Shown: positions 54,423 through 61,489 of the stretch, in pieces
Layout: each line of letters opens with the position of its first letter
Numbering within the stretch: the first letter of the stretch is position 1
Sequence record: NC_070980.1
Origin: Escherichia phage vB_EcoP_SU7
Strand: one strand, 5' to 3'
DNA: 64,000 nucleotides
Translations under genes and position numbers: made by a program
Notes under the pieces: model-generated
Seen by the model: only the letters and a program-made list of their open reading frames with translations
Databases searched by the model: none
Told to the model about the DNA's origin: nothing

Positions 54423-54498
54423 TTGGTGCACCCTACAGGATTCGAACCTGTAACCAACGACTTAGAAGGTCGCTGCTCTGTCCATTGAGCTAAGGGTG
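54423..54498 (-). tRNA. tRNA-Arg (anticodon UCU)
   Basis: Minus-strand read GCACCCT-TA-GCTC…GAGC-A-GCGAC-CUUCUAA-GUCGU…ACAGG-UUCGAAU-CCUGU-AGGGUGC-A-CCA folds as a canonical cloverleaf with encoded CCA. Confidence 0.85.
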
Positions 54499-54508
54499 CT
54501 GGATTTGT

Positions 54509-56342: not shown

Positions 56343-56515
56343 TTGATTAACACCAAATCAGTACGACGTTCGAAGGAAGGAGAAGATTCACCATTCCACT
56401 GAACAAGATAACAGAGAACACCATCAATCGTTGTTCTCCGACGAATAACACCTGTTTGAGTACCGCCAACAAGGCGAACAGTGTTACCAGTGGTAAACTT
56501 AACCTTTGAGCGCAT
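56339..56515 (-). CDS. small hypothetical protein
   Basis: Start set at ATG 56515 with upstream AGGAAACAGAGG. Confidence 0.4.
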   Translation of the reverse strand: MRSKVKFTTGNTVRLVGGTQTGVIRRRTTIDGVLCYLVQWNGESSPSFERRTDLVLIK

Positions 56516-56804
56516 CCTCTGTTTCCTCATTCTGGCGTTTAATTTCTTCAGTGAGTTGCTTGTTGAGATCTTGAATACGTTTAATCTCCCAACCCAAAGA
56601 AGCCAAACGATCATTACGTGCTTCAATTTGCTCCTGCATCTTGAGCAGTTTGGAACGAACATCAGCATTAAAGACTTCCTCTTGCTTAAGAAGGAACTCA
56701 TAACGACGCTTCCAGCTTGCTGACTTATTACTTAACGCAATAAATCCTAGAACAGAAATCGTTACAGTGAGTACGAGAAGGAATCTATAAACCTCTAAAG
56801 TCAT
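56499..56804 (-). CDS. membrane-anchored coiled-coil protein
   Basis: N-terminal TM (FLLVLTVTISVLGFIAL) then charged coiled coil. Confidence 0.45.
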   Translation of the reverse strand: MTLEVYRFLLVLTVTISVLGFIALSNKSASWKRRYEFLLKQEEVFNADVRSKLLKMQEQIEARNDRLASLGWEIKRIQDLNKQLTEEIKRQNEETEDALKG

Positions 56805-57005
56805 ATCTTTATCCTCTTAAAGTAAGATATTATAAGAAATGTTATTTAGAATTTATTATTTCTAAACTTAATTTCTATCAATAATTTTCAGAGGTCTATA
56901 TACAGTCATTACCTCTGGTCCCAAATCACTTCCACTTTTTGCAGAGAAAATCATAAGTGTGTGATTTATAAGGAAATTTAGTTTGTCAATCTTGGCACCT
57001 ATGAA

Positions 57006-57392
57006 TCAATCACGGGCACTATTATTGAACACTAAATCACCACAATACATTGGATTGGTATACCACTTTGGCACCCCTTCGCTCTTACTCTGAAAGTATG
57101 TACCGCTGTATAAAGGCACATAACCTCTCTTCAGTGCACGTCTCGCAAGCTCCTCGCTCTCTCTGATTGCTTTCTTTATCAGAGGATTATCATCACGAAT
57201 TAGCTTTACATAACGCTTAAAAGGTTTCTCCTTCTTTAGTAGGACGGGTATCCACTCGAACTGGTTTCGTTGGTTTATAACCTGCTCGGCAGTCAGTTTT
57301 CGTTGTGACATTCTGTTTATTACGGTATCCGCTACTAATGCTTTGCAAGCGGTTGGCTGATTCCCTGCCTCATAATAAATAGTCAATGTCAA
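57006..57392 (-). CDS. cell-wall hydrolase, SleB-like
   Basis: …IYYEAGNQPTACKALVADTVINRM…NQFEW… matches the SleB-type pattern. Confidence 0.55.
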   Translation of the reverse strand: MTLTIYYEAGNQPTACKALVADTVINRMSQRKLTAEQVINQRNQFEWIPVLLKKEKPFKRYVKLIRDDNPLIKKAIRESEELARRALKRGYVPLYSGTYFQSKSEGVPKWYTNPMYCGDLVFNNSARD

Positions 57393-57443
57393 AAGTAGCT
57401 GTGCTGTCGTTATCAGAACTTACTACCCCCTGTTTTACGGGCA

Positions 57444-57471
57444 TAAAAAAGCCCCATCCGAAGACGGGGCG
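57444..57471 (-). terminator. rho-independent terminator (minus strand)
   Basis: GCCCC-ATCCGAAGAC-GGGGC hairpin with U-run on the minus transcript. Confidence 0.5.
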
Positions 57472-57706
57472 ACCTGAAAAGTGAACATGACCTCACTCAT
57501 TTAAAAATCCTCGCAAAGACTCTTAAAAAGCGGCCTCGTTAAAGGCCCGGTCAAATGACCATCCAATAGGGATTGAACCATGCCAATGATTCACAAAGGG
57601 AGTTCCCTTTAGGCATCACTAGCTACGCAAAAAGCCGCACAGAGGCGGCAGACAAAAGACGCTCAAGAAGAGCGTCATAGTAGTTGACCACTGGTACAGA
57701 AGGGGC

Positions 57707-58150
57707 TTACTTAACTCTTGCTGTTTTGATTGGGTCAATATATTTTTCAACTCCCCACTTATGTTTACTGTCAGCGTAGAAAACATCAGGTGCACATTGA
57801 CTAGTAGTAGGAAATGCTTTCGGTGGCTTAGTGCTACCTTTATTCTTCTGCTTACCTTTAGTGCGACCGTTACAAAAGATTTCTAAACGTTTTTCTTGTT
57901 CTGTTTTCGCCGCCCCGTTGGTTAACAAGGAACGCTTGTGATCAGCAAGAAGAAGCGCATCAGCACGATGAACACGACGACCTAGCACCTTTGGTACAGG
58001 TGATTCTTTATGTGCTTGAGCGGCCTGTTTCATAGCTCTTCGTTTAAGGCTACGTTTGCTAATATGACTAACAGCGGCTGGCTTTTCTTTTTCCAGCTCA
58101 CTCATAGAGAACACTCGTCCGCCTTTCATGCTGATTTTAGATTTAGCCAT
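57707..58150 (-). CDS. basic hypothetical protein
   Basis: 147 aa, Lys/Arg-rich. Confidence 0.45.
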   Translation of the reverse strand: MAKSKISMKGGRVFSMSELEKEKPAAVSHISKRSLKRRAMKQAAQAHKESPVPKVLGRRVHRADALLLADHKRSLLTNGAAKTEQEKRLEIFCNGRTKGKQKNKGSTKPPKAFPTTSQCAPDVFYADSKHKWGVEKYIDPIKTARVK

Positions 58151-58220
58151 TGCTTTATTCCTTTCGCTGATAAATTATATCGTGCAAGCCTTACCACACA
58201 GCAAGGCTTAACCAAATAAC

Positions 58221-58430
58221 TTAATCAATTAAACTAAATGATTTCCAACTACGTGTAATTGCTACACGTTCGCCATCAAAGAGAACACTTACGGAGATTA
58301 GCTTACCGCAGCGACTTGATACCGTGGTAATACGTCCAGTTAATGCCTTACCTTTATTCAGGTAGTGGTAGCGAACACGACGCCCTAACAGTCGAGTCGC
58401 TTTCTTCTCTAACGTGCTTAAACTAGTCAT
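58221..58430 (-). CDS. small hypothetical protein
   Basis: 69-aa ORF. Confidence 0.4.
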   Translation of the reverse strand: MTSLSTLEKKATRLLGRRVRYHYLNKGKALTGRITTVSSRCGKLISVSVLFDGERVAITRSWKSFSLID

Positions 58431-58652
58431 TTAAACAACCTCTTTATATTGGAGTGCTCTTACACGACGATACATTACAGAAGATGCACTAATCGCCGCT
58501 TGTTTTCTTTCGTGCTCATGCTGATTCTTTCGAATCTTATCCATTTCGGCATCATTACGACGACGCTGTAGTATTCTGCTACATTTGCGATGGTTGTTAT
58601 TAGCACGTGCTTTCTTACAGATAGGGCACAAATGGGATTGAGTTAAGATCAT
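58431..58652 (-). CDS. small basic zinc-binding protein
   Basis: CPICKK…; stop-start coupled. Confidence 0.4.
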   Translation of the reverse strand: MILTQSHLCPICKKARANNNHRKCSRILQRRRNDAEMDKIRKNQHEHERKQAAISASSVMYRRVRALQYKEVV

Positions 58653-59893: not shown

Positions 59894-60703
59894 CTTTCAA
59901 TTGTAAGGGCGCTATTGCCCCGCTCTCTATGAGCTTTTTAAGTCACTATTAACTTAACTATAAACGCTCACTACTAAACGCTTATAGGTAAGTGGGGCGG
60001 TCTTATCAGGAGTTAACCTTGCCGCCCCCTTATCCGTGATGTTTCATCTGGTATCTTTAATTAGTCGCTATAAACGAAGCCGACCTGATAGCGATGATCA
60101 ATCATCACAATAAGGCAGTGCGTCCGACACTATTTAATTACTTTATCGTAACCGTCGGCAATATCGTCTACTTTGCTTTCGCTCCCGCCTATCCTTTTGT
60201 ACTAACTCTCAATCGCTAACCATCGCCCACTACGGGAGGTTATTGCGAAAGAGTCATTAGCCGTCTAATACATTGACGTTTTATATCTTTCAGCAGGTTT
60301 ACTACATAAACTGATTATGTACGCCATCAATAGTGGCCTCAAATCATTCACATCGTAAACGTTCACACTAAACCTTATTGTTAAATAGCAATTTGCCACT
60401 TTTTAACCACTCCCCGCCGCTCGCAATTGAGCGTTAATTCTTCGGACTTGTCTACCCTGATTAACTTCTTTCACTGTAGCGCCTTGTTAGCGATGACCGC
60501 CGCTACCCTTAACCGTGGGCGATTAGCTTAAGTCTTTGCGTGCACTCAATGAATCCGTCTATCAGTGGTGACGTTTCCAGTAAGGGATTGTAAGATTGTT
60601 TTCTCTGATAGTTTAGAGAATCTCACACCGTTTTATCTGGTATGCTTTCCGATGGTTATTATCATCAAGCATATTCAACCGATATAGGAGAATGTTTAAA
60701 TTA

Positions 60704-61489
60704 TTAAAGAGCGGTAAATCTATCAGTGTGCTTTCTCACACTATGCAACTGTTAGCCGTTGTTACGCTTTTCTTAAGCGGTGATTTGCTTAAGTGATGTG
60801 CTCATTATGAATCATGCTGTTTTAGCTGTCAACCACTTTTTTAAATCTTTTCTCATCTATTCTTTCGAATGACTAGTTAATCACGCATTGGATTAACAAG
60901 ATTGTAAGCGGTTGCGCTTAACTTTCTGATTCATATTTTTAAAGAGCGGTGTTTCTTACTGCTTAGTGAACATTCTAACAGAACGTTTCACCTTGTCAAC
61001 TCTTTTTATCGTCTTCTTTTTATTCTCTTCCCTTATCTCGCGTGAATCTTTGCGAAAGGGCAAGACGATAAATTGTTAAAGAGCGGGGCACTAAGTGCCG
61101 GATGTTTTATGTCATCACTGACCGTGTGAACATCTTATCATAATGATTCGATGTGTCAACAACTATTTTTCGATTAATGCATCTTGATAAACTAGCGACC
61201 GTTAAGGCCGCTAACCTTACCTTAGTTCATACGTTTAAAGGTTAAATCTTTATCCGTACTTACCAGCGATAACACCGCAATAGCTTTGCCTTTATCGGCA
61301 TCGGCTACCATCTCTTTTGCCTGCTGTAATGTACTACCGACTATTCTCATAATCATGTTAGTAACGTTAATGCTAGTGCAAGTGATTTGCGTGTCTTTGC
61401 TTGAGAAGGTATACACGTTCATTGATAAATCCTCATTATGGCATGGTTGGGAGTTTATCAAGATACACTAATCGAATTATTAAAGAGCA
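60704..61489. repeat. array of four TTAAAGAGC(G/A)(G/A) motifs, each followed by a short hairpin
   Basis: TTAAAGAGCGG at 60704, 60949 and 61076; TTAAAGAGCAA at 61479; each preceded by AT-rich sequence; lies within and just past an ORF-free region. Confidence 0.5.
61222..61461 (-). CDS. small hypothetical protein
   Basis: 79-aa ORF. Confidence 0.35.
   Translation of the reverse strand: MINSQPCHNEDLSMNVYTFSSKDTQITCTSINVTNMIMRIVGSTLQQAKEMVADADKGKAIAVLSLVSTDKDLTFKRMN

Follow-up and report, generated by a model that had tools for sequence, protein, structure and literature searches.

A probable array of leaky terminators and RNA hairpins in a modular slot of the leftward early operon of a phiEco32-like coliphage

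Hairpins and terminator-like signals in the gap

What is the function of a 314-nt gap, rich in inverted repeats, that separates two minus-strand genes within a 64,000-nt stretch of phage DNA (the window)? The window belongs to a phiEco32-like coliphage of the Kuravirus/Suseptimavirus group (Gordonclarkvirinae): over the 1.5 kb that surround the gap, identity to phages of this group, among them PAS59, EK010 and the BASEL phages Bas86-88, is 93-99%. The gap (57393-57706) is the exact interval between the minus-strand ORFs 57006-57392 and 57707-58150 and, by the published phiEco32/SU10 map, it lies in the leftward early operon, a region that is transcribed by the host sigma70 polymerase (PMC4281155, PMC12276001). 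In the order of transcription, the features of the locus are:

57707-58150, minus strand: upstream early gene, encoding a very basic 147-aa protein (phrog_11641), whose stop codon opens the gap
57650-57676, minus strand: T1, hairpin GACGCUC-UUCUU-GAGCGUC (57676-57658) of 7 bp, dG -11.3, with tail UUUUGUCU; terminator-like
57626-57649, minus strand: T2, hairpin GCCGC-CUCUGU-GCGGC (57649-57634) of 5 bp, dG -7.9, with tail UUUUUGCG
57471-57633, minus strand: variable cargo slot, the T2-to-T6 interval, with the T2 U-tail (57626-57633) at its 5' edge
57582-57623, minus strand: H3, irregular hairpin of 17 bp, dG -20.6, with loop AACU and no U-tail
57522-57547, minus strand: T4, hairpin GGCCUU-UAAC-GAGGCC (57547-57532) of 6 bp, dG -7.9, followed by GC and UUUUUAAG
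57501-57526, minus strand: H5, G-U-rich hairpin UUAAGAGUCUU-UGCG-AGGAUUUUUAA, dG -7.2
57480-57497, minus strand: H5b, hairpin of 5-6 bp with the conserved 8-nt loop GGUCAUGU, followed by UUUCAGGU
57443-57470, minus strand: T6, hairpin GCCCCGUC-UUCG-GAUGGGGC (57470-57451) of 8 bp, dG -14.8, with a C(UUCG)G tetraloop and tail UUUUUUAU
57414-57430, minus strand: Shine-Dalgarno GGGGGU (57430-57425) and CTG (57416-57414), the probable non-canonical start of the downstream gene
57006-57392, minus strand: downstream early gene as annotated, encoding a 128-aa protein with a SleB-like cell-wall hydrolase domain (PF07486, phrog_12974)

The upstream 147-aa protein has homologues in only about 10 clusters, and searches of Pfam and the PDB with it returned no match.

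That several hairpins lie between the two genes had been proposed in the initial annotation on the basis of the inverted repeats GCCCC..GGGGC (57451-57470), GCCGCACAGAGGCGGC (57634-57649), GACGCTC..GAGCGTC (57658-57676) and AAAGGGA/TCCCTTT (57595-57610) nested inside ATGCC/GGCAT (57580-57616). All of these are present, and we found three further hairpins, one of them terminator-like (57547-57532) and the others at 57526-57501 and 57497-57480, so that the proposal holds in an extended form and the array exceeds what is expected by chance. A terminator scan of 2 kb on both strands returned 6 sites versus 1.6 ± 1.4 in shuffled sequences; four of the six are on the transcribed strand inside the gap, where they span 230 nt, and by our own Poisson estimate 4 sites on one strand per 314 nt have a probability of about 1e-5. 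As RNA, the minus strand of the gap folds with -117.1 kcal/mol compared to -90.6 ± 5.1 for shuffled sequences (z = -5.15; 0/100 shuffles as good), whereas the plus strand reaches a z of only -2.61, its weaker fold arising because many of the minus-strand pairs are G-U.

T1, T2, T4 and T6 each combine a GC-rich stem of at least 5 bp and a loop of 3-8 nt with a U-tract, and all four are oriented along the minus strand beyond the stop codon at 57707, in the manner of intrinsic terminators. The earlier view that only the first of the inverted repeats (GCCCC..GGGGC, i.e. T6) looks like an intrinsic terminator was thus too restrictive, and homologues of T2 and T6 already carry a terminator annotation in phages 4E8 and WFI101126. 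Nonetheless, only T6 looks strong among the four signals: the stem of T2 has just 5 bp, and T1 and T4 are marginal with respect to the U-tract, because the short T1 run varies from 2 to 5 U across close relatives and that of T4 begins 2 nt past the stem. T4, with five U in the window versus six in 14 other phages having the same type of cargo (class I, see below), is a weak terminator-like signal, and the hairpin at the T1 position has no U-tail in most other Kuraviruses. Good U-tails are absent from H3 (which holds the nested repeats and contains two 1x1 internal mismatches and four G-U pairs), from H5 and from H5b, and the plus strand of the gap has no U-runs.

The downstream border of the gap may need to be moved. 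CTG 57416, which gives 136 aa, and not TTG 57392 is the probable start of the SleB-like hydrolase gene, as judged from a GGGGGT/GGAGGT Shine-Dalgarno 8 nt upstream of this CTG, from an in-frame stop codon just ahead of it in most relatives and from the BASEL phage records, which annotate the hydrolase start at the CTG. Moreover, in the 24 nt that precede the annotated start (57416-57393), all four single-base variable sites among 30 loci are third-codon positions and synonymous, and directly ahead of TTG 57392 most relatives have ATG where the window has CTT. With the start at CTG 57416, the gap would become 57417-57706.

Conservation of the hairpins and the modular slot between T2 and T6

Conservation of the structure in relatives, on which the initial annotation had made its proposal depend, is evident: substitutions are depleted in paired columns and changes in stems mostly keep the pair. 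Specifically, in an alignment of 15 class I sequences, variation affects 7 of the 152 columns that are paired and 14 of the 74 that are not (Fisher p = 0.001), and the bias persists when the strong hairpins are considered alone (p = 0.009). Five of the six stem substitutions found among relatives in T1, T2, T4, H5 and H5b keep the pair, each as a switch between G-U and A-U or G-C, and one, in a single phage, breaks it. The substitutions in H3 (4/4) are confined to unpaired positions, and in H5 the loop positions are hypervariable while stem changes keep the pairing. An RNAalifold consensus of the class I sequences recovers the same hairpins.

The outcome for covariation, which had been named along with folding as a check on the structure, differs with phylogenetic depth. 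In the RNAalifold alignment of about 15 close relatives no two-sided compensatory change was found (0/98 pairs), because the divergence is too low for covariation to be informative at this range. Between lineages, on the other hand, compensatory changes are present in H5b and in T6. H5b is common to the window type and to the common Kuravirus type, and its stem sequence there is wholly different yet complementary: AGUGA/UCACU in the window is replaced by GCAAC/GUUGC in class IIa and by GCAAU/AUUGC in the 4E8 lineage. All five pairs are altered on both sides, with 100% of them paired versus 38-51% in slid controls, and the loop (G/A)GUCAUG(U/C) and the UUUCAGG behind it are constant between the classes. 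T6 displays one compensatory change from G-C to U-A between lineages, along with a change of the loop from UACG to UUCG.

The gap is also conserved in comparison with the genes that flank it. The mean pairwise divergence over T1-T6 is 2.2-2.4%, as opposed to 17-21% for the upstream gene and 7% for the downstream gene when third codon positions are counted, and the cargo between T2 and T6 is conserved to the same degree as codon positions 1+2 of the flanking genes. In ECBP2, whose upstream gene is another allele that differs at 50% of third positions, the gap is still 99% identical. The low divergence of the gap could partly reflect recent shared ancestry, because the adjoining AT-rich spacer diverges by just 3.0%. 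Taken together, the folding and the sequence comparisons indicate that the hairpins of the gap are real, selected and strand-specific RNA structures.

To define the frame of the gap, we derived it from the homologous gaps in 28 loci. From the stop codon of the upstream gene, this common frame runs through a hairpin at the T1 position, T2, a cargo, T6 and then AACAGGAGGT..GTTCTGATAAC to the hydrolase gene. T2, in the general form GCCGCC..GGCGGC followed by U4-6, and T6 are both universal in these loci; T2 is found in essentially all and T6 in all Kuraviruses examined, and they constitute the left and the right border of a variable slot. The slot of the window holds a lineage-specific, non-coding and hairpin-rich insert that is known from about 20 sequenced phages: the whole 314 nt are present in about 20 phage records with 93-99.7% identity, and about 70 other records match the last ~100 nt alone (T6 and the leader of the hydrolase gene). 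This class I cargo consists of ~165 nt of hairpins (H3, T4, H5 and H5b). The common cargo, class IIa, has 66 nt, made up of a 15-bp hairpin with G-U pairs and of H5b, and the class IIb cargo of KBNP1711, 172-1 and ev_rybdy3 is a strongly hydrophobic ORF of 40 aa, with a GGAG Shine-Dalgarno and a GTG start, that probably encodes a small membrane peptide.

Next to the slot studied here lies another insertion hot spot. Past T6, unrelated genes, each of which brings along a terminator, are inserted: phiEco32 (L008, 488-1501) has a collagen-repeat protein, 172-1 and SGF2 have an HTH protein and a metagenome contig (L104) has yet another gene, the inserts at this position including a ~150-aa protein. 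A third slot, ahead of the first hairpin, holds a gene of ~60 aa in WFI101126 and EP335. As a separate observation, the 147-aa gene has lost its stop codon in phage E20-1 (L095, 819-1361), where the annotated ORF extends ~100 nt into the gap, and T2 of this phage has a stem-breaking C-to-G change.

The class I cargo has no copies or relatives elsewhere in the window by self-BLAST, and none were found outside Kuraviruses in E. coli genomes, in pattern scans of IMG/VR or in GTDB genomes; searches of metagenomes and IMG/VR with the flanking proteins revealed only a few further Kuravirus loci. A covariance model of H5b-T6 run over the window retrieved itself only, the next match (E = 0.05) being another terminator. 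The GGTTCAATCC stretch was considered as a tRNA remnant and rejected, because ARAGORN finds tRNA-Arg alone. This tRNA-Arg(TCT), at 54424-54499 on the minus strand by ARAGORN (54427-54499 by Rfam), is the sole Rfam/ARAGORN match in the 64-kb window.

Probable read-through of the array and boxA-like sites

Strong sigma70-like early promoters are present in the window at 61159-61132, 60999-60972, 60832-60804 and 63384-63357, and none was found on either strand in 56500-58500. By our own inspection, the gap contains no match to tAATGTATA, which is quoted as the consensus of the phage sigma factor (PMC4281155), and candidate -35/-10 pairs in or near the gap were dismissed for wrong spacing or lack of conservation. 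Transcription of the genes beyond the gap depends on read-through, there being no promoter inside the gap or directly behind it. Beyond the gap, the minus strand of the 50-64 kb region carries at least 7 further good terminator-like signals, and a terminator scan of this region returned 28 sites on both strands versus 9.6 ± 3.0 in shuffled sequences; terminators of the early operon have no promoters behind them, and therefore read-through appears to be a general feature of the operon. A replication origin or another role of the gap at the DNA level was rejected, there being no iterons, direct repeats or change of skew at this place.

Apart from the gap, the 28% GC spacer behind the hydrolase gene (56805-57005, minus strand) contains a perfect TATAAT (56834-56829) with no recognisable -35, a TTGACA (56989-56984) merely 13 nt from a TATAAA, and a 7-bp hairpin with ACTGTATATA in its loop, one mismatch away from the phage-sigma motif AATGTATATA. 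In the promoter-proximal half of this spacer, 15 relatives differ at just two positions.

How might polymerase pass so many terminator-like signals? A boxA-like motif, CGCTCTTTAA(N)AA, which may also be written (C/T)GCTCTTTAA(N)AA, occurs at 61489-61477, 61085-61073, 60948-60936 and 60713-60701, always on the minus strand, amounting to 4 sites in 64 kb compared to 0.51 expected. Each site is located roughly 35-95 nt past the -10 element of an early promoter and beside a hairpin (61507-61490, 61099-61087 and 60920-60905), and the motif recurs behind the early promoters of phiEco32 (L110, 9230-9895). These sites suggest that early transcripts may be subject to Nus-factor-dependent antitermination. 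Complexes of the rrn boxA type are known chiefly for countering Rho on long untranslated RNA, of which this gap is an example, and not intrinsic terminators. The authors of a study on phage 7-11 likewise suspected an undefined antitermination strategy (PMC8948821), and we found no joint mention of boxA and phiEco32 in the searchable literature. As an observation in its own right, the ~900 nt after the third strong early promoter (59894-60800, minus strand) have no ORF of more than 44 aa on the transcribed strand ahead of a 303-aa gene, representing an extended early leader that is untranslated and contains several hairpins.

No dedicated antiterminator protein was identified for this operon. 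The 147-aa protein and lambda N share two short colinear matches, one being rich in arginine and the other reading ICxGRxxKxKG (residue 91 of either protein), and homology was rejected on the grounds of a profile-profile probability of 4.4% in hhalign and of no match to PF11438 in Pfam. Thus, of the elements of a lambda N/nut system, the boxA consensus behind early promoters is found, outside the gap, and a protein of the N family is not.

On the whole, we consider it probable that the gap is an array of leaky intrinsic terminators and RNA hairpins that punctuates the early operon and that resides in a modular slot bordered by conserved terminators. As host RNA polymerase exits the 147-aa gene, the nascent RNA would fold into a series of hairpins, and T1, T2, T4 and T6 with their U-runs would act as leaky intrinsic terminators, such that behind the array fewer polymerases would reach the SleB-like hydrolase gene and those past it. 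The hairpins would at the same time supply the upstream messages with stable and protective 3' ends. T2 and T6 may be viewed as ancestral, family-wide signals that enclose a modular slot whose cargo depends on the lineage, with H3, T4, H5 and H5b maintained by selection, most plausibly as termination or pause signals or as elements for RNA stability or RNase processing. The dense fold would leave Rho little unstructured untranslated RNA for loading, and read-through is probably aided by a Nus-factor modification of the polymerase at the boxA-like sites after the early promoters. A plain terminator role leaves the retention of H3, H5 and the H5b loop GGUCAUGU unexplained.

In kind, the array is mostly ordinary, comprising terminators and stabilising hairpins at a phage insertion hot spot. 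Lambda tL/tR, T7 TE and rrnB T1-T2 likewise are GC-rich hairpins with a U-run that follow a stop codon in series along the direction of transcription, and the early terminators of lambda and T7 also operate in early units of the host polymerase whose distal genes need read-through; the gap differs from them by having four putative signals in 230 nt with non-terminator hairpins interspersed. A study on phage 7-11 discusses the C(UUCG)G hairpins that occur in T4-like and other phages (PMC8948821); T6, whose loop is exactly C(UUCG)G (its class II counterpart has the loop UACG), is intergenic like these. In contrast to these stability hairpins T6 possesses a full U6 tail, and therefore reads as a terminator and not just as an RNA-stability element. 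Morons and the PeSL cassettes of T4 resemble the gap in that stem-loops form the fixed borders of swapped cargo and in that inserted genes bring a terminator. The borders of the gap, however, have no promoter and are not repeated in the genome, and the cargo of this lineage is non-coding; with no conserved ORF, no promoter and a single copy, the variable cargo between stem-loops is the only aspect that fits. The RNase III sites R0.3 to R1.3 of T7 are also irregular hairpins, of ~20 bp, between cistrons of a polycistronic early transcript; there is no sequence similarity to them, and H3 (17 bp and two 1x1 mismatches) is somewhat shorter. As in lambda nut and rrn boxA, boxA-like motifs and hairpins lie just past each early promoter and upstream of many terminators, but those of the window are 3 kb upstream of the gap, not inside it. 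An element like the put RNA of HK022 could not be identified in the gap.

Alternative readings and implications

Could the structured RNA do something other than punctuate transcription? The T2-to-T6 cargo (about 57633-57443) might give rise to a discrete and stable ncRNA of ~190 nt whose targets in trans would be RNAs or proteins of the host or the phage. Polymerase would read through T2 and terminate at T6, and RNase E or RNase III would trim the 5' end. Although it does not code for protein, the cargo is conserved like codon positions 1+2 of its neighbours, G-U pairs render its structure strand-specific, and, as in sRNA genes, it ends in a terminator: the strong terminator-like T6 with its U6 tail is preceded by H5b and the U-rich single strand UUUCAGGU, a layout that resembles the 3' module of enterobacterial sRNAs. 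By contrast, neither strand offers the promoter of its own that is expected of an sRNA gene, a conserved single-stranded seed is not evident, the cargo has no significant complementarity elsewhere in the window, and it is replaceable, given that the slot of other phages is filled by a hairpin version of 66 nt or by a gene for a peptide. Rfam at gathering thresholds over the whole window reported nothing in the gap, and in E-value mode over 57300-57800 the best match in the gap, to anti-hemB, scored 16.5 bits (E = 0.26), the threshold being 49.5. The small RNA put forward in the initial annotation is thus unsupported by either a promoter or an Rfam match, and we regard it as rather unlikely. 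A structured leader, the other suggestion made there, would have the gap gate translation of the hydrolase through pairing of a pyrimidine tract (57705-57701) with the Shine-Dalgarno (57430-57426), the helix closing the whole gap as one domain that ribosomes ending the upstream gene would open in a long-range coupling. Indeed, the CCCCU/Shine-Dalgarno helix is part of the minimum-energy fold and of the RNAalifold consensus, its pairing probability is 0.3-0.8 in 4/5 class I sequences tested, and the hydrolase gene apparently uses a weak CTG start. One-sided changes preserve the pairing as well, which is little informative because C/U changes opposite G always stay paired. Moreover, the helix is missing from the centroid structure, the G-rich Shine-Dalgarno pairs with a different C/U-rich partner in each lineage (that of Bas88 already differs) and the four terminators between the arms would uncouple them on most transcripts. 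What is left of the leader is a non-specific predicted pairing of the downstream Shine-Dalgarno, making this reading very improbable. The long hairpins, chiefly H3, might also be sites at which RNase III or RNase E splits the polycistronic early transcript. H3, an irregular 17-bp duplex that two internal mismatches interrupt, separates cistrons of an early transcript made by the host polymerase, the common Kuravirus type has a different 15-bp hairpin with G-U pairs at the same place after T2, and the U-rich single strand between H5b and T6 would suit RNase E. On the other hand, H3 has less than two full helical turns, and by our own inspection the class II hairpin of the 4E8 lineage contains two C-U mismatches. 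Processing as the principal role of the hairpins therefore strikes us as improbable, and it is compatible with the terminator array rather than exclusive of it.

Two further readings are disfavoured by the substitution patterns. The gap could code for micro-peptides, from a 22-aa ORF (57619-57551) and an ORF that starts at GTG 57594 and has 32 aa in relatives and 23 aa in the window. Both ORFs are open in 14-15 of 15 close relatives, BASEL and other GenBank records have small CDSs annotated here, and another lineage holds the real-looking 40-aa hydrophobic gene with a Shine-Dalgarno in the slot. Neither of the two ORFs has a Shine-Dalgarno, though, and they start within or at the foot of H3 and overlap each other in different frames. 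By our own count their substitutions are mostly non-synonymous (about 5 to 1 and 8 to 2), one residue shows four different amino acids, a 1-nt deletion shortens the 32-aa ORF in the window, and a third annotated ORF (29 aa) has its frame broken by two indels of which all four combinations are seen. Coding potential was rejected on these grounds, as the ORFs do not appear to be under purifying selection, and we hold a peptide-coding gap to be extremely unlikely. Alternatively, the cargo could be functionless debris, composed of terminators and fragments left by past insertions and deletions of cassettes at a recombination hot spot. There clearly is a hot spot, with at least 3 cargo types between T2 and T6 and four inserts past T6, each gene with a terminator, and the cargo has no relatives beyond about 20 phages. 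Debris would not be expected to diverge three- to eight-fold less than synonymous sites of the flanking genes, with substitutions that avoid paired columns and an H5b stem rebuilt with full complementarity, and so this reading is highly doubtful as well.

The reading as a leaky terminator and hairpin array would refine the annotation of about 100 phiEco32-like phages that are candidates for therapy, in several of whose GenBank records the small CDSs in the gap are probably spurious, and it defines an insertion slot between two conserved terminators that could serve engineering. The combination of many terminators, a promoter-poor early operon and boxA behind each promoter makes for a testable case of timing by Nus factors in a virulent coliphage. 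There is a small chance that the ~165-nt cargo is a new phage ncRNA that acts in trans in host takeover, or a cis element that tunes termination and antitermination with boxA; in the latter case, cargo and boxA would constitute an RNA-based switch between termination and antitermination in a virulent podophage, tuning the escape of polymerase into the delayed-early genes.
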